From Phage NC-G, in sequence record MK310184: DNA of 64,000 nucleotides, one strand, 5' to 3'. The notes beneath the pieces are model-generated. The model worked only from the letters and a program-made list of their open reading frames with translations. It ran no database searches and was not told where the DNA came from. A program made the position numbers and the translations under genes. Below, in pieces: positions 15,728 to 44,813 of the stretch; positions within the stretch are counted from its first letter, which is position 1, and each line of letters begins with the position of its first letter.

Positions 15728-17059
15728 TCAAACGTAGTAGGCGTCAGTACGAGCACGAGTAATACTAACATAAGCCAGCTGTGAAGCTAAATTCACATCA
15801 GCCATATGCATGCATGGAGTATAGATAAAACTGTTCTGGACTGTAAGTCCTTGGGATTTATGAACAGTGCTCACAGGAAGAGCTCGAACCTTAGTAAACA
15901 TTCGCTTGGCTTTCCAGAAATCAGCCCACTTAGGTTTCTTACCGGTTCCACGCATAGCCTTATACTCAGTAGCAACCTTAGCCAAGAAATAATGGAACTT
16001 CTCAACTGAAGCCTCATCGATAACCTTTAAATGCTCTACATAGTACTCGTCGTCTTCATCAACAGATTCTACTTGTAGGTCCCAGTAGTTAATCATTTGT
16101 CGAGTGCCTACATCCTTAGCAGACAAGAACAATGAGGTGTGGTTCACATCTAGAATACGAACCATTTGACCGTTATTAAAAATGGTTTCAGAGAATTTCT
16201 TACCATCGTATTCAAGTTCCTTCATAAAAGGCTCTTGCATCACTAGGATTTCACCCTTAATATAAGGCGCATCGGTTTCATAAAGCTTTTTACGAATAAT
16301 GCTATTCAGCTTTTCAACCGATTTATTTGTATAAGCAAACATCCTATTCTCAAACAAGTCATCCGCGTCTTTTACAATGGAAAAATAATTCATCATAAAA
16401 TCTTTTAAAGCAGTTTGAGATTTAAAACCGTGGACACCATGTCCTTCGAATACACAATCTCTAAACCAACCACCATTACGGATTTCAGTAGCAACCTCAA
16501 TGATAGGAGCATTACTACGCATCACTTCAGTCAGATGTAGCTGTTTAATTTTAGGATGAGTAAAGAACGGAGATAACTGCGGACTTCCATCACTTCCGGG
16601 TTCTACCGGTTGTAGCTGAGCTCTGTCGCCAATCCCTAATACAGTGCACCATGGTGGCACGGAGGATTCAATAATCTTAAACAGCTTACCGTCAATCATC
16701 GAGCCTTCATCAACAACTAACACATTGCATTTGCTCAAGTCAGGAGCTTCGCGTTGTTCGAAGATATCCTGGTCTTCATATGTAGTAGGGTTAATTTTTA
16801 GAATTCTATGGATTGTTGATGCTTCTTGACCTGCGAGTTTCGACAACACCTTTTTGGCCGCATGAGTAGGTGCAGTCAAAATAACTCCGAGTTCACCGTT
16901 CTTGACTAAGTGGTCAAGGATAAATTTAGTAAGGGTTGTTTTACCTGTACCGGCTGGGCCGTTCAATGTAATCCATTCACCCTTACGTCGTTTAATAGCT
17001 TCAATGATTTCTTTAAAGGCCGTCCTCTGGCCGATGTTCAAGTCTTCAAATGTAATCAT
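15728..17059 (-). CDS. dda: Dda DNA helicase (SF1B)
   Basis: 443 aa; Walker A GPAGTGKTT and long blocks matching recalled T4 Dda. Confidence 0.93.
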   Translation of the reverse strand: MITFEDLNIGQRTAFKEIIEAIKRRKGEWITLNGPAGTGKTTLTKFILDHLVKNGELGVILTAPTHAAKKVLSKLAGQEASTIHRILKINPTTYEDQDIFEQREAPDLSKCNVLVVDEGSMIDGKLFKIIESSVPPWCTVLGIGDRAQLQPVEPGSDGSPQLSPFFTHPKIKQLHLTEVMRSNAPIIEVATEIRNGGWFRDCVFEGHGVHGFKSQTALKDFMMNYFSIVKDADDLFENRMFAYTNKSVEKLNSIIRKKLYETDAPYIKGEILVMQEPFMKELEYDGKKFSETIFNNGQMVRILDVNHTSLFLSAKDVGTRQMINYWDLQVESVDEDDEYYVEHLKVIDEASVEKFHYFLAKVATEYKAMRGTGKKPKWADFWKAKRMFTKVRALPVSTVHKSQGLTVQNSFIYTPCMHMADVNLASQLAYVSITRARTDAYYV

Positions 17060-21396: not shown

Positions 21397-21400
21397 TGTA

Positions 21401-21432
21401 GAAACGAAAAAAGGAATCCCGAAGGATTCCTT
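21401..21432 (-). terminator. intrinsic terminator after soc
   Basis: 9-bp stem AAGGAAUCC/GGAUUCCUU with UUCG loop (21411-21432) followed by UUUUUCGUUU. Confidence 0.65.
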
Positions 21433-21441
21433 ATAATTAAC

Positions 21442-21693
21442 TTATGCTTCGGGTCCTGGAGGAACCGGTGCAGGTTCTGGGGTAAACATAGCTTCATTTG
21501 CTGTTGCCCAATCATCTGCGGTGTCAACCACAGTATCATAGGCTGGTTCTTCAGACGGGAAAGTCTGATAGTGCGCACCTGAGATTCGATGAGCATTAGA
21601 ATAAACTTCAAATGCAACAGAAACCTCGGTACCTTCTACTGTACCACCTTCTACTTCATGGTCGAACGTTTTGATATTTACATATCCACCCAT
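21442..21693 (-). CDS. soc: small outer capsid protein Soc
   Basis: 83 aa; GYVNIKTF...VSVAF..YS..H.ISGAHYQTFPSE matches recalled T4 Soc. Confidence 0.85.
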   Translation of the reverse strand: MGGYVNIKTFDHEVEGGTVEGTEVSVAFEVYSNAHRISGAHYQTFPSEEPAYDTVVDTADDWATANEAMFTPEPAPVPPGPEA

Positions 21694-21721
21694 AATTTAC
21701 TCCTTTAGTTAATTACAGGTG

Positions 21722-21729
21722 TATTTATA
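21722..21729 (-). promoter_or_regulatory. late promoter (TATAAATA) for soc
   Basis: minus-strand TATAAATA 28 nt upstream of soc ATG. Confidence 0.5.
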
Positions 21730-21731
21730 TC

Positions 21732-22253
21732 TTAATATCCATTATCCTGGCGTTCAAAATTATGTTTGTTCTTCAGGTAGTACAATTTAAAGATTTCTTC
21801 AGCAGTAAGACCAAGACCTTGGAACATATTCAGAACGAAATGGAGAATATCAATCATTTCAAATTTGATTTCAAGCTGGTCTTCAGGAGACAGTTCATCG
21901 ATACGACGATTTCGATATTCAGCATGTTGCGCCTTCCACGGCTTCCATACACTGCTGGCGGCTTTTTCACCATTGCTCATACCACCAAGTGAAGTCAGCA
22001 GTTCACGGAATTCATCATCAATATAATCTTTCTGATTACGTAGCCAATCAACAACATCACCAGCAGTGGCCAATTCATCAGGATGTTTGTTATGTTCAGG
22101 CTTGTCATTTGCCAGACGAACCTGTAAAGATTTCTGCATATCAAGCATTACCTGCAACGGGTCTTTATCTTCGTGAATAAGAGCATTAAAATAAGCTTCT
22201 TCAGCTTTATCAACACCAGCAATCAGTTGTGAACATTCGTTAAAGTGCGCCAT
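21732..22253 (-). CDS. 56: dCTPase/dUTPase (MazG-like) gp56
   Basis: track ORF trimmed to ATG 22253 (AAAGGA RBS); 173 aa; general resemblance to recalled T4 gp56. Confidence 0.8.
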   Translation of the reverse strand: MAHFNECSQLIAGVDKAEEAYFNALIHEDKDPLQVMLDMQKSLQVRLANDKPEHNKHPDELATAGDVVDWLRNQKDYIDDEFRELLTSLGGMSNGEKAASSVWKPWKAQHAEYRNRRIDELSPEDQLEIKFEMIDILHFVLNMFQGLGLTAEEIFKLYYLKNKHNFERQDNGY

Positions 22254-22288
22254 TTTATTTCCTTTCAATTCATGTTTAAGAGATGATA

Positions 22289-22315
22289 ATTATAACAAAC
22301 CCGATAGAAAGCATA
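22289..22315 (-). promoter_or_regulatory. candidate MotA-dependent middle promoter for gene 56
   Basis: MotA-like box TATGCTTTC (22307-22315), 12-bp spacer, -10 TATAAT (22289-22294). Confidence 0.4.
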
Positions 22316-22339
22316 AATAGTCCTAACGTAGGAGGATTT

Positions 22340-22417
22340 ATGGGAACTGTGTTCTATCAAATCTGGAAGTTAGTAGATAAAGAATCTCGTAAGTTGATAT
22401 TCTTTTTCTCACTATAG
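22340..22417 (+). CDS. small ORF (25 aa) on opposite strand
   Basis: AGGAGG RBS 6 nt upstream of ATG; lies in gene-free gap; very short. Confidence 0.2.
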   Translation: MGTVFYQIWKLVDKESRKLIFFFSL

Positions 22418-22534
22418 ACGTTTTAGTATGGAACCTGGTAATAGTTCCATTAGCGGCAACTCAAGCTATTATATTACTACAAGTAGAGTTGCAGCATATA
22501 CTCTCAATAATCAACGCAATTGGAGTTAATTTGC

Positions 22535-22732
22535 ATGCTTAAGTTACCTGCACTACTTATGGCCATTAAAGGCAATAAAAAGAAGACTATCCTGGCCTCT
22601 ATTATAGCAGGAGGTATTGTTTCTTGGAACTTTGTTTTTGCGCCGTTGTTAGTTGCCCATGGGCTCGCTGTTCCTGTAATCCCTTTAGATACAGTAGTAG
22701 ATTTAGCCTTTGCATTTGTGGGGTTAGTATAA
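22535..22732 (+). CDS. small membrane protein (65 aa) on opposite strand
   Basis: GGAG RBS; two predicted TM helices; ends at GNRA hairpin terminator; no overlap with minus genes. Confidence 0.4.
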   Translation: MLKLPALLMAIKGNKKKTILASIIAGGIVSWNFVFAPLLVAHGLAVPVIPLDTVVDLAFAFVGLV

Positions 22733-22735
22733 GAA

Positions 22736-22760
22736 TAGGGAGGAAACTCCCTATATTTTA
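22736..22760 (+). terminator. hairpin terminator between convergent genes
   Basis: UAGGGAG-GAAA-CUCCCUA (22736-22753) followed by UAUUUUA on plus strand; also at gene 61 stop. Confidence 0.5.
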
Positions 22761-23779
22761 GAATATTTACTTAAACGCATTTTTGCCATTAAACCTTGTG
22801 CGATATTCTCTTTCATATAAGAAAGGATATCGTTTATATTGGCTTTATCTTTCATAACCATATCATTTATATCTTTAGAAGGCCATGGGGCCTTGTCCCA
22901 GAACAGAACCCTTTCGCCTGCATCAACTAATCGTTGCATACGCTTAATTGTGTCAGGATGGCGGGGTTCATTGTCCATTACCCAGGCACGAGTTTCTTTA
23001 CATGGAACTATAGCCAAGTCCAACGACCCACCAGTAATTGCTATTGCATTCGGTACGAATAATGAATCGATAGGACCTTCCATTACCCACACCAATTGAC
23101 GTTCATCCACAGTATCCATTCCATATATTTTTGTGGCTTGGTCATGAGCTTTTATTGTAATATATTTTTGTGGAGCATCTTTACGTAAGGCTCGACCCTG
23201 AAAACTTTCTATTTGTTTATCCTTATTGAAAATAGGAATAACCAAACGTGGTTCAGGCATTTCTTTGGAATAGGTCCCTGGATTAACCGAGTTCACCAAT
23301 GCGGGCCATTCTTTAGTAAACCACAGCCGATTCCATTTGTTTTCAGGAATGCAACGTAGTGTCACATATTTGATAATAGGATGGTCCTTCGGCATTCTAT
23401 CTAATCGTTCACAGAAATTAAGCTTTTCGATGACAGGCATCTTAGCTTTAATTTTTTCAGATATCTCCACCTTAGGTGCAGCTTGTCTCCCGAACGATTG
23501 CTCTTTATGTTTCTCAAGAATATATTCGCGATATAAATCAGGCTCGTATTCGTATAGATACTTCTTAATTCCTGCTGAATAGTCACAGTTAAAACAGTGT
23601 AGCATTACAGAGCCGTCGTTAGCAGGATAGGCCCAAAAACGAGCTTTGTTCTCATCTTTTAGGGAGTCGCCACATACACGACAACGACAGTTTAATTTAA
23701 AATCACTACCAGTTACTTGTCTGAATTTAGGTTGGTAATTCAAGGCACGTACAGCAAATTCTCTATCGACATATGACAT
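22751..23779 (-). CDS. 61: DNA primase gp61
   Basis: 342 aa; N-terminal Cys4 zinc ribbon (CRCRVCGD...CFNCDY) and Toprim-type region; resembles recalled T4 gp61. Confidence 0.88.
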   Translation of the reverse strand: MSYVDREFAVRALNYQPKFRQVTGSDFKLNCRCRVCGDSLKDENKARFWAYPANDGSVMLHCFNCDYSAGIKKYLYEYEPDLYREYILEKHKEQSFGRQAAPKVEISEKIKAKMPVIEKLNFCERLDRMPKDHPIIKYVTLRCIPENKWNRLWFTKEWPALVNSVNPGTYSKEMPEPRLVIPIFNKDKQIESFQGRALRKDAPQKYITIKAHDQATKIYGMDTVDERQLVWVMEGPIDSLFVPNAIAITGGSLDLAIVPCKETRAWVMDNEPRHPDTIKRMQRLVDAGERVLFWDKAPWPSKDINDMVMKDKANINDILSYMKENIAQGLMAKMRLSKYSKI

Positions 23780-23817
23780 TATTTTTCCTTGGGCTCTAAA
23801 TTAATAGAGCCATTATA

Positions 23818-23992: not shown

Positions 23993-24000
23993 TATTTATA
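23993..24000 (-). promoter_or_regulatory. late promoter (TATAAATA)
   Basis: exact TATAAATA on minus strand upstream of the 53-aa ORF. Confidence 0.45.
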
Positions 24001-25997: not shown

Positions 25998-26022
25998 ACA
26001 AAAAAAGGAGCCGAAGCTCCTT
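25998..26022 (-). terminator. intrinsic terminator after gene 41
   Basis: AAGGAGC-UUCG-GCUCCUU (26005-26022) followed by U7; overlaps gene 41 stop. Confidence 0.65.
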
Positions 26023-27460
26023 AAAATTTTATAGATGCTGCCAAATCGTCCAAATCGCTTCTATTAACACGCGACTGGCGATTGACTTCGGCTTGGCGAT
26101 TCATTTCACCTGTAGCCTCACGAACGGTGTTCACAGGGCCTTGGTTAGAATCGTCTTCAACTTCATACCAACGCTGGTTTCCTTTCTTAACACCAATCTT
26201 AAATTTGTTGTAGTAGCTCTTATCACCATAACGAGATTTAAGCTGCTTAATCATCTGCATACCCATCTGGGCAAACTCTTCTGTCTCGACCACACCTAAC
26301 ATGAAGTCTGCAGTATGTGCAATACCAAAAGATTCAGCGATATCAGCCATATCGATTTCGGCAGCAACGTTTGCACCACGAGTAGTCTGGGCCGCCGTCC
26401 ACAACAATAATTTCTTCTCTACTGCAAGGCCACGTAGTTCTTCGGCAACCATCTTAATCAATCCGTAACTGTTTTCAGAGAAAACTTTCGTACGGGATGA
26501 AGCACAGATAGCCAAGTAGTCGACGATAACGACCTGTGGAACAAAGTTTTGTTTGAGCTTGTATTCGTTTAATAATGCACGGAATGTATCGGCATTAGCA
26601 CCACCGGTAGGATACTGTTTAATCTTTAAACGACCTAAAGTAGCAGTTGAACGCCACTTATCCATCTTAGCTTTATATTCAGGCCATGAGACGTGACCAT
26701 CATCGATATCATCCAGCGATACATCCAGAAGGTTAGCATCGATACGCTTAGCACATACTTCTTCTGCCATCTCCATGGAGATATAAAGAACATCGTAACC
26801 GGATTGAAGGTAATCAGCAGCCAATGAACATAGTCCAAGAGACTTACCTACGTTTGTTCCTGCCAACAATACGTTTTCAGTACCAAACTCAGCGCCACCC
26901 TTAGTAATCTTATTCAGAATATTAAGACGGAATGGAACCTTACGTGCTTTATCAGAATAACTTTTGAATCGTTCTTCATAGTCATCCATCCAGTCATGGC
27001 CTAATTCAGAATCGAAACAAATCGATAATGCATCACGCATGATATCCGGAATAGCACCGATACCTGGGAGTTTTCTATTTTGTTGCTCAACCGGAAGGTC
27101 GGCATTAGTTTGAATTTCAATAATTTTTGAAGTGGCATTATACATCGCTGCCTTCTGAACATATTTCTCTGTCTCTTTAACCAACCATTCTTGGTCTTCA
27201 GGGCCTGCATTCAGAGAATTTAAAAGCTCTTTAGCTCCTTGGTGTTCGACTTCTGAAAGGGTGCTGTTATCTAATGCAATACTCAAAGCATTTTTAGAAG
27301 GCACCGCATTATATTCATTGACATGTTTTTTGATTTCTTTGAAAAGGGTCTTTGCCGGGCCCTGGTCAAAATAAGAATCATTCATATAAGGCCAGACCTT
27401 AGTGAAATAATCACTATTGCCTAGCAGTTGAGCCAAAATAGTTTCTACCACTTCCACCAC
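26021..27460 (-). CDS. 41: replicative DNA helicase (DnaB-like) gp41
   Basis: 479 aa; Walker A GTNVGKS and DnaB-family C-terminal domain; synteny with 61/uvsX. Confidence 0.92.
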   Translation of the reverse strand: MVEVVETILAQLLGNSDYFTKVWPYMNDSYFDQGPAKTLFKEIKKHVNEYNAVPSKNALSIALDNSTLSEVEHQGAKELLNSLNAGPEDQEWLVKETEKYVQKAAMYNATSKIIEIQTNADLPVEQQNRKLPGIGAIPDIMRDALSICFDSELGHDWMDDYEERFKSYSDKARKVPFRLNILNKITKGGAEFGTENVLLAGTNVGKSLGLCSLAADYLQSGYDVLYISMEMAEEVCAKRIDANLLDVSLDDIDDGHVSWPEYKAKMDKWRSTATLGRLKIKQYPTGGANADTFRALLNEYKLKQNFVPQVVIVDYLAICASSRTKVFSENSYGLIKMVAEELRGLAVEKKLLLWTAAQTTRGANVAAEIDMADIAESFGIAHTADFMLGVVETEEFAQMGMQMIKQLKSRYGDKSYYNKFKIGVKKGNQRWYEVEDDSNQGPVNTVREATGEMNRQAEVNRQSRVNRSDLDDLAASIKF

Positions 27461-27774
27461 CTCTTAGATTTAATTTTATCCAGTTCTTCTTGTATTTGCA
27501 TTGTAACACATTTTTCTACATGAAGCGCTAGCTCTTCTTTTCGGTCTTCGGAAGGCGTTCCGAAATCAACCGACACTTTTCCATCTTTCTCAATAACAAT
27601 ATTCATCACATAAACGATGTGAGCAGTGCCATCGGGTAATGTAAGCATAATTTCCTGCTTAACAGAACCCATTGACTTACGGATTATATCTAACGATTTC
27701 TCATAATAACGAGGGTCACTAGGACCCTCTTCAGTATCTTTAACAAAATTATCTAAATCAGATAAATCAGTCAT
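27445..27774 (-). CDS. hypothetical protein at gene 40 position
   Basis: 109-aa ORF overlapping uvsX stop and gene 41 start, as gene 40 does in T4. Confidence 0.55.
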   Translation of the reverse strand: MTDLSDLDNFVKDTEEGPSDPRYYEKSLDIIRKSMGSVKQEIMLTLPDGTAHIVYVMNIVIEKDGKVSVDFGTPSEDRKEELALHVEKCVTMQIQEELDKIKSKRWWKW

Positions 27775-28939
27775 CTAAATCCATCTCTTCTAAATCGTTT
27801 TCGATATCAGCAGCGCTTTGAGTGTCACCACCCAATTTAACTGCAACGTTTTTAGAGACACGAGAGTTAATAAGGTCGTTCACCGCATCATCGACTTCTT
27901 TAATAGAATTAATTGCACCGAGCTTATACTTATTCTCGATTGCTTCACGGAATGGAGCATGTTTAAACAGCGGTCCCCAGAACTCAACACAATCGGTAGC
28001 TTTAGCACGCCATGATTTTTCTTCTTGAACCATTTCACCTGTGGTTTCGTCAAGGAATGCACGATTATACCAACCAGCTTTAGGTTTCACGACAAAGCCA
28101 ATATCAGTAGCCATTTCGAGCAGACCACTAAATGGGTCAATACCACCTTCAAAGTTCACAGTAATTGGGAACGTTGATTTCTCTTTAACAGTACGAGATT
28201 TTTCGGCCTTCAGGGTGAAGTCATAACCAGTGAGCTCGGTTCCATCTTTAACCTGACGTTTGGAGATAAAGAACACGGTAGAAGCAGAGTACAGAATACC
28301 AGTACCACCACCCATAATCTCTTTAGGATACATTCCACCAATTTCCATAGCCGTATGGTTAATTGCTACACAAGGAATATCCTTGATAGTCAGATAAGGT
28401 GTTACGATACGGAACAGAGATTTCAAAGACTTAGCACGAGTCATATCACCTACAACTTTCTCGTTCAAAGCATCTTCGGTTTCTTTCTTAGAAGCAGTGT
28501 TACCGATGGAGTCGATAAAGATAATAACCTTTTCGCCACGAGTAATTTCTTCTAATTGGTTGGTCATGTCAACCTTCAGTTGTTCGACCGACTGGATTGG
28601 CGTATGAACCACACGTTCCAGGTCAACACCCATTGAACGGAAATAAGATTCTGAAGCACCAAACTCAGAGTCATAGAACAAACAAATTGCGTCTGGATAT
28701 TTCTTCATATATGCCGCAACCATAGTTAATCCAAACAACGTTTTAAAGTGTTTAGACGGCGCAGCAAAGATTGTCAAACCTGATTGTAAGCCTGCATTCA
28801 ATGCACCACCCAATGCAATATTAAGCATAGGAATACGAGTAGGAACTTCGTCACGACCATTAAACAATTTAGATTTGGTCAGGTCGGCAGTCATTTTAGA
28901 AGTAGAAGCTTTAATCAAACGGGATTTTAAATCAGACAT
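27767..28939 (-). CDS. uvsX: UvsX recombinase (RecA-like)
   Basis: 390 aa; RecA-fold Walker A (AAPSKHFKT) and long collinear resemblance to recalled T4 UvsX. Confidence 0.92.
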   Translation of the reverse strand: MSDLKSRLIKASTSKMTADLTKSKLFNGRDEVPTRIPMLNIALGGALNAGLQSGLTIFAAPSKHFKTLFGLTMVAAYMKKYPDAICLFYDSEFGASESYFRSMGVDLERVVHTPIQSVEQLKVDMTNQLEEITRGEKVIIFIDSIGNTASKKETEDALNEKVVGDMTRAKSLKSLFRIVTPYLTIKDIPCVAINHTAMEIGGMYPKEIMGGGTGILYSASTVFFISKRQVKDGTELTGYDFTLKAEKSRTVKEKSTFPITVNFEGGIDPFSGLLEMATDIGFVVKPKAGWYNRAFLDETTGEMVQEEKSWRAKATDCVEFWGPLFKHAPFREAIENKYKLGAINSIKEVDDAVNDLINSRVSKNVAVKLGGDTQSAADIENDLEEMDLDD

Positions 28940-28991
28940 TATATTTTTCCATAGGCATCATTATATTTTTCTCACGTTTTAAGATAGGGTA

Positions 28992-29018
28992 ATTATATCA
29001 CTTCACAGCTACAGCATT
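28992..29018 (-). promoter_or_regulatory. candidate MotA-dependent middle promoter for uvsX
   Basis: MotA-like box AATGCTGTA (29010-29018), 12-bp spacer, -10 TATAAT (28992-28997). Confidence 0.4.
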
Positions 29019-29148
29019 ACTTAATTCCTCGGTTGATAGCCTTATCGACTATCTTCCGAACTTCTCGTTTCTCGAGCCACACTAATAATAGCAAGGCTCC
29101 GAAAGAGAATAATAACAAACCTATAAAAAGCAATAGAGGACCTAGCAT
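29017..29148 (-). CDS. small membrane protein (43 aa)
   Basis: ATG overlaps upstream stop (ATGCTAG); hydrophobic MLGPLLLFIGLLLFSFGALLLLVW... Confidence 0.3.
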   Translation of the reverse strand: MLGPLLLFIGLLLFSFGALLLLVWLEKREVRKIVDKAINRGIK

Positions 29149-30035
29149 ACTACGTCCTCATAACGTGGCATTTCGTATTCAGAATGAATATTGGCACCGA
29201 AATAAATGAATTCAGCCAGACCAGGATGAAATACTAAACCTGGGTTCTCATGATAAATGATATGTGGTCTTGATTTCAGAATTTGATAATATTCAACCTT
29301 ACTCGGTTTGAATTTAATAATCTCTACATCAGGACGATAGTCTTCACGTTTAAATGAATCGTTAGGGTCGGTGATATAAAGACGAGCACCTTCAGCCGCA
29401 GCTTGGTCTACAACTCTTTCGAATTGATAACACTTATCTGAAATACGGAACGGATGGAAAATACCATCAATTTTAATAGGCGCTAGACCTTCAGAGTAAC
29501 GCTCAATTACTGCCGGATTAATTACCTTTTGGTCTACAAAAATTTTATCAGAGGATGCACCTCGTGACACCAGGACGTCTTTCTGGCATTGATTCAGCAC
29601 TGTAGTATAAAGTGAACGTTCAACTGAAGCCACATCAATATCAATGAACTCGTCGATATAATAACGAGGAACTTCAGGGTCCATTGTGATATTAAAGTTG
29701 AATTGTACAGTATGAGCGCCGTCATAACCGGTGATATCGGTTACTAGTCCTGAGCAATCATAGTATTCGATTAGAGAATCGACTACAAACTCGTTTTCAG
29801 ACCAGAAATGTTTACGGGTTTCATAAGCATTTTCTTTATACCAAAGTGGTACGAAATTCAGTTCTGGGAATAATTCAATGCATTCTTTGATATCGCTCGA
29901 ATTTCTAGGATAAGCCAGATAATCACCTGGACGAGCACGATTTAAATGGAGTTGAAAATTACCGTCCTTAAGGACGGCATATTCACCTGTTTCGTAACTA
30001 CGCATACTGAAAATAGGAACGATAAACAGACTCAT
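29142..30035 (-). CDS. hypothetical protein in beta-gt slot; candidate hmC sugar transferase
   Basis: 297-aa ORF; start overlaps stop of 42-like gene (ATGA); function inferred from position only. Confidence 0.55.
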   Translation of the reverse strand: MSLFIVPIFSMRSYETGEYAVLKDGNFQLHLNRARPGDYLAYPRNSSDIKECIELFPELNFVPLWYKENAYETRKHFWSENEFVVDSLIEYYDCSGLVTDITGYDGAHTVQFNFNITMDPEVPRYYIDEFIDIDVASVERSLYTTVLNQCQKDVLVSRGASSDKIFVDQKVINPAVIERYSEGLAPIKIDGIFHPFRISDKCYQFERVVDQAAAEGARLYITDPNDSFKREDYRPDVEIIKFKPSKVEYYQILKSRPHIIYHENPGLVFHPGLAEFIYFGANIHSEYEMPRYEDVVC

Positions 30036-30730
30036 TTCAGGAAACCTCGGACGTAGTCAAAATCACGTTCAAACACGTGTGCACTTACCATGGTGTGGGA
30101 ATACGTACCTAAACCGACACCACACTGTTCAGCAATAAATGCCATCAGTTTACCCTGCAGATAGAAATCCAGTTGCATAACAACAGCGCAGTTTTGTGAA
30201 CGCATATGGGTATGTGCATACAAACGTCCGTCACGGATATAATACGTCACCGAATCAGTGCATGGATATTCTAAGGATTCGTCAGAATCAAGGAGGGCTT
30301 GGTCTTGTTCTTGGAGAATCTGGAACACAACTCTTCGCGAGTTAGCCTTTTCTTTAAGCTCTTTAAGTAGGGCTGGGAGTTGGGCCACAATTCGAGGTCC
30401 ATAGAAAGTGTTGAAGTTTGCAGGCAATACGTCACTTTTCGGCTTATCAATGAACTTAGCAACATTAGGATATTCCTTAAATGCTTCGGCAGCGTCAGTA
30501 CCACCAGAAATCATAAATTTCCAAAAGGATTCGGCATATTCGTAACTAATACGATTGATACGTGGGTCGGTGAATTTATAGGTGCTGGCATCCAGTACTT
30601 CTATCGAAGCAGAACCAATTTCATAACAACGTCCGATACGAGAATCAACTGCAAACTGCGGAGCTTCCAGGATTTCTTCGTTCATTTGTTTAAATGCATT
30701 TTCAAAACTAACAGCGGTAATGTGTTTCAT
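30032..30730 (-). CDS. 42: dCMP hydroxymethylase-like (thymidylate synthase family), divergent gp42
   Basis: 232 aa; TS-family signature around catalytic Cys (SRR...YPCTDSV.YYIRDGR...MRSQN); ATGA coupling both sides. Confidence 0.65.
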   Translation of the reverse strand: MKHITAVSFENAFKQMNEEILEAPQFAVDSRIGRCYEIGSASIEVLDASTYKFTDPRINRISYEYAESFWKFMISGGTDAAEAFKEYPNVAKFIDKPKSDVLPANFNTFYGPRIVAQLPALLKELKEKANSRRVVFQILQEQDQALLDSDESLEYPCTDSVTYYIRDGRLYAHTHMRSQNCAVVMQLDFYLQGKLMAFIAEQCGVGLGTYSHTMVSAHVFERDFDYVRGFLK

Positions 30731-31263
30731 TTATTCACCTTATTTTCAATATATTCGTTCAGACGTTTTAATTCTACCATATCAACATTAAGCAAATTAT
30801 TATGGCCGTCATGATTTAAGATTTTAAACACGTTTTCAAAACATGTTTCGTATTGCCGGATAGTTAGGTTGAACTCATCTTTGGTTAATTTAATAAGGTC
30901 GTCTTCAAAGTCTTCATCTAATGGATTACGAGTTAAAATAACCTCGATAACATTAAATTCGGATTTAAACCCTTTCCAATCTTCCAGTTCTACATAAGGG
31001 TCCATTTCACCACGAAGGAATCCTGAGTAAACAATATTACTTGGATAACCGCGGTCAAGGATGTAGACGAAATTAGGGTCTAAAAACTTATACAGAGTTT
31101 CAACTAAGGCCTTATCGTTATCAGTTCCTAATGAAATACATTTACCATTAATCTTTTTAGGAAAATCAATAAGACGATATTTCTTATCGGATAACAGATT
31201 TTTAATTAAAGTAGACTTCCCGGAATTATCCGGGCCGTCTATAACAATGATTTTTGGATTCAT
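30727..31263 (-). CDS. P-loop kinase (nucleotide or sugar kinase family)
   Basis: 178 aa; Walker A IVIDGPDNSGKSTL; translationally coupled within cassette. Confidence 0.6.
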   Translation of the reverse strand: MNPKIIVIDGPDNSGKSTLIKNLLSDKKYRLIDFPKKINGKCISLGTDNDKALVETLYKFLDPNFVYILDRGYPSNIVYSGFLRGEMDPYVELEDWKGFKSEFNVIEVILTRNPLDEDFEDDLIKLTKDEFNLTIRQYETCFENVFKILNHDGHNNLLNVDMVELKRLNEYIENKVNK

Positions 31264-31643
31264 GGATGATAGGCCTTATAACTATCAAGAGTTCCTTCAC
31301 GAACCATTTCTTTAAAGTGGTCAGGACGGATTGCTCGGTCATCGATGATAAAAGTATAACTCGGCTTGTGTGTAAGCAAATTGTGGTATTTCAATCCAAT
31401 TTTTTCAAGGTTCTTAACCAATGCAGGAACTACTTCAACCAAGATTCGACCTGGGCCACATGAAGTCATGCCACGGGCGGTGAACAATGTAATCTCGTAC
31501 CCTTCATCATAAAGCTTATTAATCATGGACACCATTTCGGTGTCCGGTTTAAAGTTCTCATAATCACGGTCATGGTTCCAAATCGTGATTGTGTTATCGA
31601 TATCAAAACATAAATGTGGCTTATTTTCTACTCGATGCGACAT
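31260..31643 (-). CDS. HAD-superfamily phosphatase
   Basis: track ORF trimmed to ATG 31643 (TAATG coupling); motifs DIDNTIT, LFTARG, FIIDDR. Confidence 0.65.
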   Translation of the reverse strand: MSHRVENKPHLCFDIDNTITIWNHDRDYENFKPDTEMVSMINKLYDEGYEITLFTARGMTSCGPGRILVEVVPALVKNLEKIGLKYHNLLTHKPSYTFIIDDRAIRPDHFKEMVREGTLDSYKAYHP

Positions 31644-33316
31644 TAAATTTTCTTCCATTGTTTGTGGAGTTCAGTAGAACCTGTAGGTTTATATTTTACA
31701 CCAGTTTCCTGGTCAAGCAAAACCCACTTATCAGGACAACGAGTAATAATTTGAGCCGTAATAGGGTCACGAACTTCATCGACAAATTCACCAGTAATAA
31801 GCTTACGCTTACGAGGATGCCGCTTCAGCAGCACACTCAGTTGGTACAAACCGTTATAATAAGCACCTAGAGCTTTCAGAGGGTTATTCTTAAAGTAACC
31901 TGCCAGAGCCATCCAAATAACAGCAATCCAGAGCTTGTGCTTAAATGTGCACATAGGAATATCGTCTAAAGGCATAACCTTTTCAATATCAACGAACACA
32001 CGAGTCCCATTACGAGTTAAGCCACCCCATAGAGGGTCTGAGTTAAATTTGTCATAGCCATCGATAGAATAAAGCACCTTAGCTTCATCATAAATCGCAG
32101 GGCCTTTAGAACTATTACCGAAATAACCACGTGGGTCGATGATTTTAATATCACCTTCATCTGACAGCATAATATTACTGTAGTGTGGGTCGCCATGAAT
32201 AAGTTGGTACGGCTCTTTATGTTCAGACAGAATTTCTAATGCATGGCGGAGAAGTTTTTCAGGGTCGCCTACCTTGAAGTCATTAACGTGGGTAATGCCT
32301 TGTGGAGCAAAGCCTTCAATCAATCCGGCAATAGAAGCATTACGAATAAGGACCTTGTCCAATACTTCTTTCTTAACATCGGAATACCATTGCTCATCGG
32401 ACGGGTTATCGATAGTTCCACCGAATGAACGTAATGCACTAATGACCTTATAAACCATGAGGACTTTAGTTTCTTTAGACATAAACCGGTAGGCATCTGC
32501 CATGGTACGACCAAAGATACGTTCCATTTTAATGAATTCGCCTGGAGAAAAGTCTACAATGCTAGGAACGAATTCAGAATCAATAGAATTATACCAATTG
32601 ATTTCTTTAGATTGAATTTCTTTACCTAATTCGTTAGTTGGTACTTTAATGGCCAGATTCTCGGTGAACTCTAATTTATTAAATTCACGGTTAATTTCAG
32701 ATTCTTCATGGGCTTTAGCCAGTTTCAATTTGTCACCGACATCAACTACAAAGTCCAGTTTACGTTCAGTCAAATAGACCATTGAATCCAGGTTATCAGC
32801 AAGGTCTTCGCCATAATTAGAACGGTCGAAACCTGTCCAATTGGCTACCTGATACAAACCAACTACGCCACCACCCGTACCAATTTCACGTAAGTACGGT
32901 TCTTCAAATGTAAAGCGACAGTCAGTTCCATAGGTATAACAGTAGTCGTTACCCCATTCAACTTTATGACCAATAGGAATGATGTCACACCAGTTAAACA
33001 AGACATTATGGCCAATGATATCTTCGGCAATGCAATCAATAGCATGAGCTGAACCATTAGCAACGTCAACGTTACGAATAGTGAATTTAGGCTTATCACC
33101 AGTAATCATGTTAATGGATTTAATATAGCCTTTAACGAGGTCGTTAAATTTGCTGTGAATAACCAGAATAATTTCATCTGATTGGTTACTATACAAATCA
33201 TACAAATGCTTTAATACCGTATGTTGTTTGTAGTTAACCAATACCTTCGGGATTTCGTTAGTAATTGGATACAACCGTGAGCCAAGACCCGCGCCTAAAA
33301 TAACAACCTTTTTCAT
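31643..33316 (-). CDS. bifunctional sugar-1-phosphate nucleotidyltransferase / sugar kinase (APH-like)
   Basis: track ORF trimmed to ATG 33316 (GAGGAA RBS); N-terminal ILGAGLGSRL; C-terminal HGDPHYSN and IIDPRG. Confidence 0.7.
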   Translation of the reverse strand: MKKVVILGAGLGSRLYPITNEIPKVLVNYKQHTVLKHLYDLYSNQSDEIILVIHSKFNDLVKGYIKSINMITGDKPKFTIRNVDVANGSAHAIDCIAEDIIGHNVLFNWCDIIPIGHKVEWGNDYCYTYGTDCRFTFEEPYLREIGTGGGVVGLYQVANWTGFDRSNYGEDLADNLDSMVYLTERKLDFVVDVGDKLKLAKAHEESEINREFNKLEFTENLAIKVPTNELGKEIQSKEINWYNSIDSEFVPSIVDFSPGEFIKMERIFGRTMADAYRFMSKETKVLMVYKVISALRSFGGTIDNPSDEQWYSDVKKEVLDKVLIRNASIAGLIEGFAPQGITHVNDFKVGDPEKLLRHALEILSEHKEPYQLIHGDPHYSNIMLSDEGDIKIIDPRGYFGNSSKGPAIYDEAKVLYSIDGYDKFNSDPLWGGLTRNGTRVFVDIEKVMPLDDIPMCTFKHKLWIAVIWMALAGYFKNNPLKALGAYYNGLYQLSVLLKRHPRKRKLITGEFVDEVRDPITAQIITRCPDKWVLLDQETGVKYKPTGSTELHKQWKKI

Positions 33317-33375
33317 TATCTGTTCCTCAAGTGAATGTAGGTACATTATACACTATTTTTAATAAATTCTATTGC

Positions 33376-33876
33376 TTAAATCTTATCTTTACCGTATTCC
33401 ATACACTGTTCTACTGCAGCAGGCACTTTGGTCTTAAGCTTGTTGATTTGTTTCTTATAATCACGCGCCTTATCGAAGCTCTCGGTTTCGAGCATTTCGT
33501 AATAACGAGCCTCATGAATAGAAACCTGTAAATTGATATGGTTTACACACATCGCATACAGTTTCTGCTTTTTGTACAAATCATCTTGGCGCTTCATTTC
33601 TGCCTGGTGTTTGGCTAGTACCGCTTCACGCTTAGACTCTTGTTCACGTTGGAATTCGATTTCCCTTTGAGCATATTTTGCGCAGTTATTACCGCATTGA
33701 TTATTAGCTCGGGTATACACAAGTCCAGAACCGGCACGGAATTTCATTTCGCCATCGAATTGTTTCTGTTCGGCTGCAATACGAGCTTTACCAACTTCAT
33801 CAGCTGAAACTGCATCACCGTATTGGACCGCGCAACCTGATAGGAGCATACTCATTGCGATAATTAACTTTTTCAT
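33376..33876 (-). CDS. putative lipoprotein (166 aa)
   Basis: signal peptide with lipobox LSGC; GAGGA RBS; charged coiled-coil-like C-terminal half. Confidence 0.6.
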   Translation of the reverse strand: MKKLIIAMSMLLSGCAVQYGDAVSADEVGKARIAAEQKQFDGEMKFRAGSGLVYTRANNQCGNNCAKYAQREIEFQREQESKREAVLAKHQAEMKRQDDLYKKQKLYAMCVNHINLQVSIHEARYYEMLETESFDKARDYKKQINKLKTKVPAAVEQCMEYGKDKI

Positions 33877-33883
33877 AATATCC

Positions 33884-34021
33884 TCAATTAAAACAGTTAT
33901 ACTTAATTTGTGCTATAAGAATAATCCATCCCATGATTAATGTTGGAATCATTGGAGGAATTGCCACTGCCCAATAAATGGTAAAGGCAGCCATTATAAG
34001 AAATAAAATAATTATCTTCAT
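33884..34021 (-). CDS. small membrane protein (45 aa)
   Basis: ATG overlaps upstream stop (ATGA); hydrophobic; below track size cut-off. Confidence 0.35.
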   Translation of the reverse strand: MKIIILFLIMAAFTIYWAVAIPPMIPTLIMGWIILIAQIKYNCFN

Positions 34022-34254
34022 TGTTTAACGATAATGATTTGTGCGTTTGATTTACGTTCAGCGACGATAGCCCAGATTAAAGCCACTACCCAACCAATCA
34101 TCGTCCATCCTAACAGGAGATTAAGGAAGAAGATTCCGACATTGCTACGAGTGCCTCGCAGAAGAGCCAGAATCCATGGTAAAAAGTAACCAATGAACAT
34201 AATAACCAGAGAACCGAATCCTAAAACACCAGCACTAACGATTAAAGCTTCCAT
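34018..34254 (-). CDS. small membrane protein at imm position (78 aa)
   Basis: track ORF; two TM helices; first gene after early promoter; position matches T4 imm. Confidence 0.5.
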   Translation of the reverse strand: MEALIVSAGVLGFGSLVIMFIGYFLPWILALLRGTRSNVGIFFLNLLLGWTMIGWVVALIWAIVAERKSNAQIIIVKQ

Positions 34255-34284
34255 TATAATTTCCTCATGTAGTTGATAGGAAGG

Positions 34285-34314
34285 ATAATACCACGTTCCC
34301 TGTGGTATGTAAAC
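34285..34314 (-). promoter_or_regulatory. early promoter inside 3' end of gene 43
   Basis: -35 GTTTAC 34309-34314, 18-bp spacer, -10 TATTAT 34285-34290, conserved cctatcaac box. Confidence 0.5.
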
Positions 34315-34316
34315 AC

Positions 34317-37028
34317 TTAAAAGTCGAACATGTCAAATAATGTTGCTTTTTTCTCGTAGTCGATTTTAGCAGACTCGGTAAAACCGGTCAGAGGTTTGAT
34401 AAAGGTCTTTTGGAACAGTACGTTGTAGTCCATCCAACGGAGGACTTGGTCACGAATCTGAATCGGGAGTTCAATACCTGACGGCCATGCCATACAAGCT
34501 TCACCGAACGGGTTGCCTTCTTTAAGTGGCAGTACATATACCTTCTCACCATCAACGATACGAGGCATAGTCAAATCACCAGCAGAAGCACGCATGTAAG
34601 CTAAGCAACCTTTGATGTGGTACGGACATTTAGAACCAGGGAAACCACCTTCATTATATTTCTCAATGTTGTTAGCACTGGATACTGCAGCAATGCTTAC
34701 ATAGTCTAATTCGTTAAATTCCTTATTAAACTGTTTGAAATATTCTTGCAAAGAGGCCTCGCCTTCTTGAAGCATACGACGGATGCATTCTTTCAGTGCT
34801 TTCTGAACCGCTTTAGGTGTACTTGATTTCTGAGTTTCGAGACCCATGATTTTCAAGTGTGGTTCGGCATAACGAGTACCTTCCATGTCCCAAACGTTCA
34901 GTGCATAACGTTTCTTGCCTGTCCAGAATCCACCAAGACCTTTAGAACCAAGTGGAGGACCAGCGATAGCTTCTCGGTCCATGAACATCAAGTGCTGTTT
35001 ATTGTTCATGTATTCACACATCTCACGGAAGCCTGCATCAATAGCAGGTTCCATACGTTCACGTGCAAATTTATCTAAGAAGTCAACCCAGTGGTTAGTA
35101 TCACGGAATTTGTCTTCGCCTACTTTATTGATGATTGCGTCAGCCTTAACATAAATGGAGTCGGTATCACCATAGAGCACGAACTTCTGGTTTTCGGTCT
35201 TACATACGCTATTCAGATATTCGTTAACCTTACGTTCAATCCATTGGAGGGCCATTTGACCAAACAATGTGATTGCAGTTGCGTTCCTGAGGTCATAGTA
35301 ACGGAACCATACGTTACCAAGTGCACCATAAAGGGAGTTGATAAGCAACTTACGGTTAATCTGAGCAGTCATACCTGCGACTTCAGTACGTTCGGCTTTG
35401 AACAACATTTCTTTTAAAGAAGCTTCTGACAATTTTTTAATCTGGGCTTTGACTTCGTCAGAGAAGTCGAAACGATAATCAACATCCAGTGGACTATCAT
35501 CAGACGGATTAGGATTTTCTAATGCTTCTTTAATTAACTCGCCATTACGTTGAGCTGCAAGCATATAACCTTTATGTTCTTTACGTTGTAAGAACACCTT
35601 CGTGATTTCTGTAGGAATAACACCATCACGGTCTTTATAGTACATCATGCCGTTAGGAGAGCAACTGTAGGTGTCGCTAGGACGCGGAGCAGTTCCGGCA
35701 ATATATTCATGTATAGGTGCGTTGGCGAATGTGCCTGCGATGGTCTCTGGGCTTATATTCACTTGTCGAATGATACTCGGGTACAGAGATGTAAGGTCGA
35801 AACTCATTACATATTTGTACGCGTTAGGAATCGGTTCCTTAACGAAAGCACCTGGATAAGGTTGAACCGCGTGCGATTTGGCCTGAGGAATAACTTTACC
35901 CTGTTCTTTAAGGCTATTAAAGATAATAGCGTCCCAAGTCTTAATTGGGCTGAACACCGACTGAATCTGCATCTTGGCATAGTAACCCATGTCCAGACTA
36001 AGAAGAATGAACTGGCGCTTCATATCAATCTGCACAACACGATATACGTCGATAATGTTATAGGAAATATATCGTTGGTGGTTCGTCTCACGTAACTTGG
36101 AGATAGGACCATCATATTTCAACTTACCTACTTTCAATTCATATTCAGAAACATAATCCAGAGAATAAGAAGGCTGGTTGGTAAAGCTGAATTTTTTATA
36201 AAGGTCGATATAGTCCAGAACAGAAATACCGAACAGTGTAATAATTTCACGAGCACCGTACATGTTCTCGATAACTTTAACACGAGTCTTACGATGCGGG
36301 CTTAATCGCTTAGCAGTGTTCTCACCAAACAGATTTTTCAGACGGTTATAAACGTATGGCACGTCAAATGATTCAACGTTCCAGCCGGTCAAAATCACAG
36401 GAGTTTTCTGTTGCCAGAAATTCAGATACTCGAGCATCATTTCTTCTTCGGAATTAAACGGAAGATAAACGATTTTGTCAATGATTTCCTGTGGAACTTC
36501 GTCACCACCTTCGTCTTGGAGTTTCTCAGCGATTTTAATCGACCACTCTTCGACCGTACCATAAGGTGAAACTAAAAGGTCAAATACATAGAATTTATCA
36601 TCAATCGAGTCGTAGTGAGTAATGGCATCGATAGGATGTTTAGCCTGGGCAGGTTCAGGGAATCCATCAGGAGATGTTACCTCGATGTCGAAGTTAGCAA
36701 TACGAATCTTGGAAGAATCATACTTGATTTCTTTACGATAGGTATCAGACAAATAGGCTAATTTATAGTCGTCCATACCAAGGGCTTCAAGTCCCATATC
36801 GTCCATGCGCTTCATCCATTGAGAAGCATCACGCATTGAATCGAATTCTTTCTTAACACAACCCTTACCATAGATGTCAATGTATTTTACGGCTTGCTCT
36901 GGGTTAGCATGCATAAACATTGTAGGCTTGTAAGGAACTTCACGACTACGTTCGTTACCATTTTTATCGATGTAACGTTCGAGAATATTATCACCGATTT
37001 GTTCGACTGTCAAATAGAATTCTTGCAT
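34317..37028 (-). CDS. 43: DNA polymerase gp43 (family B)
   Basis: track ORF trimmed to ATG 37028 (AAAGGA RBS); 903 aa; exo and pol motifs (FDIE, YGDTDS); collinear with recalled RB69/T4 gp43. Confidence 0.95.
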   Translation of the reverse strand: MQEFYLTVEQIGDNILERYIDKNGNERSREVPYKPTMFMHANPEQAVKYIDIYGKGCVKKEFDSMRDASQWMKRMDDMGLEALGMDDYKLAYLSDTYRKEIKYDSSKIRIANFDIEVTSPDGFPEPAQAKHPIDAITHYDSIDDKFYVFDLLVSPYGTVEEWSIKIAEKLQDEGGDEVPQEIIDKIVYLPFNSEEEMMLEYLNFWQQKTPVILTGWNVESFDVPYVYNRLKNLFGENTAKRLSPHRKTRVKVIENMYGAREIITLFGISVLDYIDLYKKFSFTNQPSYSLDYVSEYELKVGKLKYDGPISKLRETNHQRYISYNIIDVYRVVQIDMKRQFILLSLDMGYYAKMQIQSVFSPIKTWDAIIFNSLKEQGKVIPQAKSHAVQPYPGAFVKEPIPNAYKYVMSFDLTSLYPSIIRQVNISPETIAGTFANAPIHEYIAGTAPRPSDTYSCSPNGMMYYKDRDGVIPTEITKVFLQRKEHKGYMLAAQRNGELIKEALENPNPSDDSPLDVDYRFDFSDEVKAQIKKLSEASLKEMLFKAERTEVAGMTAQINRKLLINSLYGALGNVWFRYYDLRNATAITLFGQMALQWIERKVNEYLNSVCKTENQKFVLYGDTDSIYVKADAIINKVGEDKFRDTNHWVDFLDKFARERMEPAIDAGFREMCEYMNNKQHLMFMDREAIAGPPLGSKGLGGFWTGKKRYALNVWDMEGTRYAEPHLKIMGLETQKSSTPKAVQKALKECIRRMLQEGEASLQEYFKQFNKEFNELDYVSIAAVSSANNIEKYNEGGFPGSKCPYHIKGCLAYMRASAGDLTMPRIVDGEKVYVLPLKEGNPFGEACMAWPSGIELPIQIRDQVLRWMDYNVLFQKTFIKPLTGFTESAKIDYEKKATLFDMFDF

Positions 37029-37085
37029 TTCATTTCCTTTATAGACGAGTGATTGTCTTTTGTTTGTTGATGAATCATTATACTC

Positions 37086-37106
37086 CAAAAAGGGACCGAA
37101 GTCCCT
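37086..37106 (-). terminator. terminator-like UUCG hairpin between regA and gene 43
   Basis: AGGGAC-UUCG-GUCCCU (37091-37106) followed by UUUUUGG; -10-like TATAAT directly downstream. Confidence 0.5.
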
Positions 37107-37116
37107 CTGCTTAAAC

Positions 37117-37479
37117 TTAATTACCAATCGTATACTTAGACAGCAGTTCCCAGTCATTTTTCTGTTTAAAGGAAATGACGCGGAAGTTGTTGGTGATTTC
37201 GAACAATTCGGAATCGTCTACAATATCAATAAGTCCCCAATCCTTAAGAAGCTGGGCGATAGAATCGCGACGTTGGTAGTCTTCACCATCGATATCTACC
37301 TGGCGTCCGTCCATACGCAACATTTCTTTAAAGTGGACAATATAATATCGTCCTTGCTTTTGCAAAATGTGACAGGACTGATATAGTTTCTTTTCTTTAT
37401 TATTAGCGATACCCATACGAGTCAGGGTCTCTTTCACTTTTAGGAAGTCTTCGGGTTGCTTCAGAGTAATTTCAATCAT
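37117..37479 (-). CDS. regA: RegA translational repressor
   Basis: 120 aa; near-identical blocks to recalled T4 RegA (MIEITLK.PEDFLKVKETLTRMGIAN...). Confidence 0.9.
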   Translation of the reverse strand: MIEITLKQPEDFLKVKETLTRMGIANNKEKKLYQSCHILQKQGRYYIVHFKEMLRMDGRQVDIDGEDYQRRDSIAQLLKDWGLIDIVDDSELFEITNNFRVISFKQKNDWELLSKYTIGN

Positions 37480-37485
37480 TTTAAT

Positions 37486-38058
37486 TTACCATTCCAATGC
37501 TTTCTTTTTCAAGTCTTTTTGTTCTTTCACATTTTTGGTTACGGATTTCAGGAACTCATCCGTAACCAACCCTTTCATCTTCTTAAGCATTGCCGGAAGA
37601 TGGCCTTTAATTTTATAAGTCTCGAGATAACGATAAGCGTCATCATTATTAATTGAATGGTATTTCATCAATAAACGAGTAATAAAAACTACACTAACTT
37701 CATCATCATGGGCCTTAGCCCATTTACCAAATCTCTTACCCTTAGGAACAGCATGTAAAAGATAGTTGAAGTGACTTTGGTCGTCAAGTTTAAGACAGTT
37801 AACCATTGCAGCTTGCATAATGCAATCTACGTGTTGGCTCAAACTATTATCGAGCCAGAATTGATTATAGTTTTCCGATTGAGCCAAGTTACGTTGTTTC
37901 TTACCGTATGTGATATCGTTCATAATGGCAAACAATTCGTTTTCAGCCTTTTCTTTAAATGAATCGGCCAAGGCTTGAATAGCAGCGTCGTTACGTTGTT
38001 TCCAAGCAACTTCATGTTCATTCAGTTCAACGTCATCATCAAAAAGACTTATAGCCAT
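37486..38058 (-). CDS. 62: clamp loader small subunit gp62
   Basis: 190 aa; position and overlap with gene 44 as in T4. Confidence 0.75.
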   Translation of the reverse strand: MAISLFDDDVELNEHEVAWKQRNDAAIQALADSFKEKAENELFAIMNDITYGKKQRNLAQSENYNQFWLDNSLSQHVDCIMQAAMVNCLKLDDQSHFNYLLHAVPKGKRFGKWAKAHDDEVSVVFITRLLMKYHSINNDDAYRYLETYKIKGHLPAMLKKMKGLVTDEFLKSVTKNVKEQKDLKKKALEW

Positions 38059-39008: not shown

Positions 39009-39046
39009 ATTAATTTCCTCAGGTTTGTTTTTACATTATACTCCAA

Positions 39047-39063
39047 GGGAGGAATTTCCTCCC
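39047..39063 (-). other. RNA hairpin between genes 45 and 44
   Basis: 7-bp palindrome gggagga/tcctccc with 3-nt loop just after gene 45 stop. Confidence 0.4.
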
Positions 39064-39069
39064 TATGCT

Positions 39070-39768: not shown

Positions 39769-39793
39769 AATGTTTCCTTATCAAGTCAAATTA

Positions 39794-40228
39794 TTAAGCA
39801 ATTACGATCATTTGTTTACGGATTGATTCAGGCAGAGATTCAATATACTCTGGAATCTTGGAAGCAACAATGGCACCGGCTTCAAGCAACTGCTCATCAG
39901 GGTCGACGCAATAATCATCTTCTAAACGTTCAGAACCGTCGCGGTCGATAACAAGTTTAGCACCTGCAGCCAAAGAATCTTTAAAGTGTTTACGCATGAT
40001 TTCAATCCACTTATCAGATACATCATTATCGATGATACTGTACAGCATAAACTTGGTTTCTTGTGGAAGAGACTGCAGACGACGTGCAGAGTCGGTATCA
40101 ATATTCAGTACCCATGATTTACGGATACGGTTCTGATTATGTGGGTTGGAATCAGTACGGATGGTTTTAACTTGGATATCTTTAACGGTAACGCCATTAG
40201 AAGTAGCAAACATAATATTTTCTCTCAT
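39794..40228 (-). CDS. rpbA: RNA polymerase-binding protein RpbA (by position)
   Basis: track ORF between 45 and 46 as rpbA in T4; start may be ATG 40213. Confidence 0.5.
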   Translation of the reverse strand: MRENIMFATSNGVTVKDIQVKTIRTDSNPHNQNRIRKSWVLNIDTDSARRLQSLPQETKFMLYSIIDNDVSDKWIEIMRKHFKDSLAAGAKLVIDRDGSERLEDDYCVDPDEQLLEAGAIVASKIPEYIESLPESIRKQMIVIA

Positions 40229-44812: not shown

Positions 44813-44813
44813 A

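Follow-up and report, generated by a model that had tools for sequence, protein, structure and literature searches.

The 64,000-nucleotide (nt) stretch of Phage NC-G analyzed here (sequence record MK310184; 64 kb, hereafter the window) carries a plus-strand open reading frame (ORF) of 65 amino acids (aa) at positions 22535–22732, between the dCTP pyrophosphatase gene 56 and the DNA primase gene 61. This ORF is a bona fide gene of phrog_2024, a family without known function, and is under purifying selection. Ahead of it lie the remains of a divergent paralogue; we refer to the intact gene as type A and to the upstream copy as type B. We consider it likely that the type-A/B unit is an ancestral accessory unit of T-even-type phages, transcribed late, and no novel insertion. 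The family itself is known, though uncharacterized; the window adds a member to it in an unusual tandem of a type-B pseudogene followed by type A, together with a hairpin at the border with gene 61. The 497-nt gap that houses the unit (22254–22750) is the sole supported plus-strand coding in 64 kb.

Type A matches the phrog_2024 profile over its full length (residues 1–65 of 65; E = 4.5e-25), has an intact reading frame, and retains all four residues that are invariant in the family (W31, N32, P37, and P47). Its ATG is preceded at a distance of 9 nt by a GGAG (22522–22525), and the exact 65-aa protein is found on 13 metagenome contigs. In codon-level comparison, the ratio of nonsynonymous to synonymous substitution rates (dN/dS) was 0.04–0.43, with synonymous sites saturated. 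The pooled ratio of nonsynonymous to synonymous differences (pN/pS) was 0.36 in frame versus 0.75 and 1.84 in the shifted frames; type B gave 0.32 in frame, and shifted frames of both types spanned 0.75–2.07 overall. Purifying selection confined to the reading frame marks type A as a genuine protein-coding gene.

These values bear directly on an alternative in which the ORFs are incidental and the interval works at the level of DNA or RNA, providing the gene 56 promoter and an oriA-like origin region and giving rise to a late antisense RNA directed at the primase mRNA 3′ end. Several features would suit such a role. Gene 56 has a middle promoter here, T4 oriA is assigned to the promoter of this gene, and in most relatives the ORF stop overlaps the gene 61 stop without a terminator, so that late transcripts must enter gene 61 antisense; T4 is also known to transcribe both strands at some sites (PMC2988020). 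Selection in the reading frame only argues the other way, as do the W, N, P, and P residues held invariant across subfamilies that are ~18% identical and an ORF length conserved at 62–70 aa, and in the window's clade the hairpin would limit antisense read-through. We regard incidental ORFs as very improbable. In phages that lack the hairpin, late transcription may run antisense into gene 61, and an antisense effect could act alongside the protein.

The family is narrow and offers no informative distant relative, as indicated by a profile search of 1.84 billion representative proteins in which just 11 clusters matched. A locus search of IMG/VR returned only two loci. Foldseek against BFVD recovered family members and noise only, the anti-phage defense and exclusion models of PADLOC gave no match at E ≤ 1, and an Rfam scan of the region produced just one chance microRNA match, far below its threshold. 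A literature search did not find a paper on the type-A ORF.

Across deposited phages, type A is present in 716 records and type B in 108 (tblastn). At every locus examined, type A adjoins the primase gene 61 on the opposite, "late" strand and converges on it. The plus-strand position between gene 56 (or dam) and gene 61 is shared by T4, JK42, fDHCT2, ESCO47, VR7, S16, Ursula, and the locus L020, and it spans Tequatrovirus (including T4), Mosigvirus, Dhakavirus, Gaprivervirus, Gelderlandvirus, and others. A reading made earlier from the letters of this DNA alone (the sequence-only reading) had taken the arrangement for an inserted module; the occurrence of the same gene at the same position throughout these genera contradicts that view. 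It had also proposed comparing the 56–61 interval among related phages, with conservation of the interval as noncoding DNA as the outcome that would tell against coding. In the comparison, the interval is coding in the relatives. The gene is annotated "hypothetical protein" in Mosigvirus, Dhakavirus, Gaprivervirus (VR7ORF033w, "similar to RB32 ORF030w"), and Gelderlandvirus (S16 gp16.1), and family ORFs are 62–70 aa long.

T4 itself carries an ORF of this family. It encodes 66 aa on the plus strand between dam and gene 61 (NC_000866, 17738–17938; L004, 3239–3439), overlaps the gene 61 stop by TTAA, and has GATAAATA and AAGGAGG upstream. The T4 RefSeq record NC_000866 has no feature at these positions, and a 2020s re-annotation (OZ209023) calls the ORF hypothetical. 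Compared with RB32 ORF030w, VR7ORF033w, S16 gp16.1, and the T4 ORF, type A of the window is alike in its full-length profile match, size, strand, position converging on gene 61, nATAAATA box with a ribosome-binding site, and invariant W-N/P/P residues. It differs in the tandem of B then A, with type B frameshifted, and in a 22-nt hairpin insert before gene 61, where the relatives have a 4-nt stop overlap. Ordinary Dhakaviruses (e.g., JS98 and fDHCT2) have type B as their sole form; the order B then A was seen among deposited phages only in ESCO47, and VR7 has A then B.

Outside the T4-like phages, a siphovirus-type Escherichia coli prophage integrated in yegD carries a phrog_2024 homologue (E = 6.3e-11) as its terminal gene (L023, 3001–3213; L025, 12001–12213). 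The prophage truncates yegD and occurs in 25 of 5,426 complete E. coli genomes. The homologue follows tail-fibre, DUF2730, lysozyme, and SegE-like GIY-YIG genes and sits beside the attachment junction.

Within the window, the ORF census counted 111 minus-strand and three plus-strand ORFs. The claim of the sequence-only reading that minus-strand coding is interrupted at a single place is essentially right, since the other two plus-strand ORFs are unsupported: 753–938 (61 aa) and 60647–60868 (73 aa) matched no family in a PHROG search, and small minus-strand genes are annotated at both places in relatives. On these grounds, both were rejected as further plus-strand islands and are probably spurious. 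The GC skew runs from −0.13 to +0.03/+0.085 and back to −0.145 over the gap, a change of sign that fits a strand switch. Describing the gap as AT-rich overstates a marginal difference, as its GC content is 0.34–0.39 compared with 0.36–0.45 in the flanks. The coordinates first given for both ORFs, the hairpin, and the gap all hold on recheck, and plus-strand coding in the gap is real by family membership and in-frame purifying selection.

How the unit may be expressed can be read at the level of motifs. T4 late promoters, which depend on gp55, gp33, and gp45, are defined by TATAAATA at −13 to −6 without a −35 element. A late-promoter-like TATA box, CATAAATA, lies on the plus strand at 22312–22319; it matches this consensus at seven of eight positions, with C at −13, and stands 20 nt ahead of the type-B ATG. 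The predicted start is an A at 22325, giving a leader of 15 nt. The plus strand of the window has only two copies of ATAAATA. Among the T4-like homologues examined, the box recurs as A/G/C-ATAAATA or ATTAAATA ~13–33 nt (mostly 13–21) before the ATG and is followed by a strong ribosome-binding site. T4 keeps the box even though dam separates the ORF from gene 56, and there the MotA box is not adjacent. Type A lacks a separate late box, none is present upstream of the E. coli prophage homologue, and a scan of the gap found no plus-strand sigma-70-like promoter. Because the box is conserved and rare, a ribosome-binding site follows it, and the gap has no sigma-70-like plus-strand promoter, we infer a putative gp55-dependent late promoter with a start near 22325. 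It resembles T4 late promoters in its consensus match and its spacing to a short-leader gene. Variants at −13 are common (PMC2988020; PMC1524935), A being the common one and C, as in the window, uncommon (PMC2988020). A TA dinucleotide that the other aligned relatives have between the late box and the ribosome-binding site is missing from the window (at 22324) and from L012, and the predicted leader is 2 nt shorter as a result.

Back to back with the late box, and overlapping it by 2 bp, is a MotA-type middle promoter for gene 56 on the minus strand (22289–22313). Such promoters have the box (a/t)(a/t)(a/t)TGCTT(t/c)A near −30, 11–13 bp from a sigma-70 −10 element. The window has, at motif level, TTATGCTTTC with TGCTTTC running from 22313 to 22307, a 12-nt spacer, and TATAAT from 22294 to 22289; C replaces A at the final position of the box. 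All three elements are conserved before gene 56 in eight relatives (including ESCO47, JK42, fDHCT2, JS98, and VR7) and in T4. The middle promoter that the sequence-only reading had assigned to gene 56 is thereby supported, and its suggestion of independent regulation finds a motif-level counterpart in a plus-strand unit with a promoter-like signal and ribosome-binding sites of its own. Elements and spacing resemble those of T4 MotA middle promoters; the packing against a late-promoter-like box is different. By position, this is the promoter linked to oriA in T4 records (NC_000866 note), and T4 oriA has been tied to a MotA-dependent gene 56 transcript (PMC3016281).

Canonical late boxes also occur on the minus strand of the early region, at 23993–24000, 21722–21729, and 59707–59714 and as AATAAATA (ATAAATA core from 49122). 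One precedes soc, as expected, and one precedes a 53-aa 61.1-like ORF ahead of the primase gene, which suggests that 61.1 and 61 may be transcribed late. A 157-aa ORF (48613–49086) follows the AATAAATA box.

The first ORF downstream of the predicted late start is the damaged copy. Alignments with ESCO47 and with metagenome contigs coding for the identical 65-aa protein trace a type-B paralogue of phrog_2024 across 22340–22542 of the plus strand. An intact 67-aa type-B ORF is present in ESCO47, L007, L008, L010, L011, and L014; it matches phrog_2024 at E = 8e-20 and is ~18% identical to type A, sharing the invariant W-N, P, and P residues. In the window, a run of five T at 22403–22407 (T5) replaces the six T of relatives (T6), a 1-nt deletion that shifts the frame, and a family-invariant proline has become leucine (CTA, 22477–22479), a change seen in the window alone among the aligned copies. 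Because of the frameshift together with the loss of the invariant proline, the window's type-B copy is, on these alignments, a pseudogene, and its N-terminal stump is the 25-aa ORF at 22340–22417, which is no gene in its own right. The ribosome-binding sites credited to the two ORFs are present: AGGAGG (22330–22335) before the 25-aa stub and GGAG before type A.

There is an 8-nt overlap (ATGCTTAA) between the start of type A and the former type-B stop, which in intact alleles suggests translational coupling; in the window, with type B cut short, type A must by this layout depend on its own GGAG. Type-B copies are also damaged in other two-copy phages, with an altered C terminus in VR7 and split or partial hits in DK-13, RZ, and SP18. 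The VR7 copy (L017, 1707–1905; NC_014792, ~16598–16796) is unannotated and directly follows VR7ORF033w; its C terminus is apparently frameshifted and continues into gene 61 antisense.

The upstream ORF might still be functional, by making a 25-aa peptide, by a −1 ribosomal or transcriptional slip that restores the 67 aa, or if T5 is an assembly error. Apart from the frameshift, nothing interrupts the type-B frame before its normal stop, and, read from the sequence, a −1 shift on UUC-UUU-UUC would restore it. The T-run site, however, is no canonical X-XXY-YYZ heptamer, and a five-T run is too short for efficient transcriptional slippage. With no slippery heptamer, T6 in sister genomes, and a further inactivating substitution, programmed −1 frameshifting was rejected. 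T5 recurs in two independent assemblies (L009 and L013, which also have a K-to-N change in common) and is thus a real lineage variant; this recurrence and the window's Pro-to-Leu change led us to reject a sequencing slip as well. The missing invariant proline and the broken or partial type-B copies in VR7, DK-13, RZ, and SP18 likewise oppose a working upstream ORF, to which we attach almost no probability.

At its distal end, the unit meets gene 61 through a clade-specific 22-nt insert (22733–22754; no strand assigned) identified by alignments and folding. The insert is present in the window and in L007–L014; it is absent in ESCO47, T4, JK42, and fDHCT2, where the convergent stop codons overlap. 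It contains the GNRA hairpin that the sequence-only reading had located on the gene 61 stop and that is indeed there: TAGGGAG-GAAA-CTCCCTA at 22736–22753, whose 3′ arm holds the stop codon (CTA, 22751–22753). The predicted fold has a stem of 7–9 bp and an energy of −14 kcal/mol (z = −2.9 versus shuffles). Its tails are U-rich in both orientations (AUAUUUUAG for the plus strand, UUCUUAU for the minus strand), and its 5′ flank is A-rich. By these features, it looks like a bidirectional terminator between the convergent type A and gene 61. The 18-mer occurs once in the window, and elsewhere exact copies lie just after stop codons in unrelated phage contigs, as ordinary post-stop hairpins; a mobile repeat was rejected on this basis.

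By sequence identity, the locus lies on a Mosigvirus/Dhakavirus recombination joint. To its left, soc, gene 56, the promoter region, and type B (21400–22550) are 98–100% identical to Mosigvirus ESCO47 (98.9% for gene 56). Identity to ESCO47 falls to ~65–75% from roughly 22450–22550 on, and gene 61 is 94.9% identical to Dhakavirus fDHCT2 versus 67.8% to ESCO47; on this right side (compared over 22550–23800), the replication genes are, with gene 61, Dhakavirus-like (95–97%). A Mosigvirus-like left side and a Dhakavirus-like right side place the inter-genus joint inside the small-gene pair. In other phages, the 56–61 interval or its immediate surroundings contain dam, mobE, or additional ORFs. 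Extra ORFs of 228 aa or 311 aa lie between soc and gene 56 in L011 (1519–2205) and L013 (1261–2196), and the window lacks them. With segF located there in T4 and mobE in other phages, these soc–56 ORFs add to the evidence for an insertion hot spot.

The surroundings are those of a T4-type phage. Gene 56 (21732–22253, minus strand), annotated as dCTPase in relatives, flanks the gap on the left, and gene 61 (22751–23779, minus strand), whose stop codon lies inside the hairpin, flanks it on the right. Window positions 26000–46000 are ~97% identical to the Dhakaviruses JS10, MN04, and Esco_phi_B-01. From the T4-type flanking genes and this identity, the window is identified as the early/middle, counterclockwise-transcribed arm of a Dhakavirus-like T-even phage.

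The AlphaFold model of the type-A product (predicted local distance difference test score, 76.8) has a short N-terminal helix, a long transmembrane helix at residues 15–41, a loop, and a C-terminal helix at 51–62. The two-helix membrane protein of the sequence-only reading is accordingly borne out as a small membrane protein and only partly as two helices, one being a long transmembrane helix and the other a short C-terminal one. The best 19-residue hydropathy window averages 2.06. Five positive charges lie N-terminal of the hydrophobic segment and none after it, where two negative charges are found, and the C terminus is hydrophobic (...DLAFAFVGLV). Because all five positive charges are on the N-terminal side, the orientation is likely N-in. 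Distant members vary at the N terminus and conserve the outer half of the helix and the motif W-N-[FY]..P...HG..P..P.(D/E), a pattern that suggests an interaction on the outer-leaflet or periplasmic side.

Taken together, these features suggest a sequence of events, offered as a proposal. After the onset of replication, RNA polymerase with the late sigma factor gp55 would start at ~22325, directed by the CATAAATA box. Ribosomes would translate the type-B stub and terminate, and type A would be initiated independently at its own GGAG. The type-A protein would insert in the inner membrane with its lysine-rich N terminus in the cytoplasm, leaving the conserved motif segment at the outer leaflet or periplasmic face, probably to bind a membrane or periplasmic partner. 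In the window's clade, the GAAA hairpin would end the transcript and separate the unit from gene 61; in most relatives, the overlapping stop codons would let late transcripts run antisense into gene 61. Our best guess for the role, a speculative one, is that the protein acts late at the envelope in a dispensable capacity, for instance in lysis timing or in exclusion.

Several observations weigh against an ancestral late unit encoding such a membrane protein. The −13 position deviates from TATAAATA in both the window (C) and T4 (G). The late box overlaps the AT-rich edge of the gene 56 MotA box, so the middle promoter of gene 56 could account for some of the late box's conservation in phages other than T4. 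The hairpin tail has only four T, under the threshold of the terminator scan (five T in eight bases). The topology is a prediction, and the 48-residue hydrophobic stretch could form a helical hairpin instead. Finally, profile searches of Pfam, NCBIfam, PADLOC, and PDB gave no meaningful match to type A, leaving its function without homology support.

Among specific functions, the sequence-only reading had raised a holin-like peptide. In that case, type A would be a holin, antiholin, or lysis-timing factor whose late accumulation in the inner membrane alters membrane permeabilization. Type A is like phage holins in its small size and in its predicted membrane embedding and late expression, and its helix at 15–41 provides the at least one transmembrane domain expected of a small holin. 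A 54%-identical homologue from OE5505 is labeled "Holin" in UniProt/BFVD, and the distant prophage homologue lies ~1.5 kb from a lysozyme gene. Type A departs from holins in having its charged region at the N terminus rather than a hydrophilic, charged C-terminal tail, and in lying outside a lysis cassette: it adjoins the primase gene, not an endolysin gene, in all T4-like genomes examined. No dual-start motif is conserved in the family, and the OE5505 label is the submitter's, every other record reading "hypothetical protein." T4-type phages, moreover, are already equipped with a complete set of lysis genes (t, e, rI, rIII, and pseT.2/.3). A holin-type role is thus distinctly unlikely.

The other role raised at the outset was a membrane-acting toxin or exclusion factor. 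None of the results obtained backs a toxin. We considered a superinfection-exclusion, host-envelope, or anti-defense factor at the periplasmic face that blocks incoming DNA or masks or inactivates a host membrane protein. Conservation concentrated in the outer helix half and the periplasm-side motif, with a variable cytoplasmic N terminus, would accord with this. The prophage homologue is terminal in the yegD prophage, in a moron-like position, and morons for lysogenic conversion or exclusion typically occupy terminal positions after the tail-fibre genes of prophages. An arms-race gene would also fit the existence of two divergent paralogues that are patchily retained and decay. Against this, the T4 exclusion genes imm and sp are early, unlike the predicted-late type A; in the PADLOC search, no model or known exclusion protein proved similar to type A; and the prophage context is a single case. 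We regard an exclusion role as doubtful.

T4 Imm (superinfection immunity) and RI (antiholin) are, like the predicted type-A product, short T-even membrane-anchored proteins that act at the inner membrane or in the periplasm. The analogy is one of kind only. Type A matched no Pfam or NCBIfam model in searches that did not compare it directly with Imm or RI. The imm gene differs in being early and encoded on the opposite strand, and RI in its folded periplasmic domain; type A has only ~23 residues beyond its transmembrane helix. A broader conjecture, which we put forward tentatively and think unlikely, is that phrog_2024 is an overlooked late T-even inner-membrane component whose periplasm-facing motif engages a specific envelope partner of host or phage (for example, in lysis inhibition or in the exclusion of secondary phages); types A and B would be specificity variants swapped or lost at the 56–61 joint, and the prophage copy would have been captured for use against T-even phages.

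These findings do not overturn current understanding of T-even phages. The locus illustrates back-to-back late and middle promoters, shared stops of convergent genes, and the decay of one redundant paralogue. It is of value mainly for annotation and as a lead for work on T4: a conserved, selected gene for a 65- to 66-aa membrane protein is missing from NC_000866, and the T4 ORF offers a cheap knockout target in the best-studied phage.

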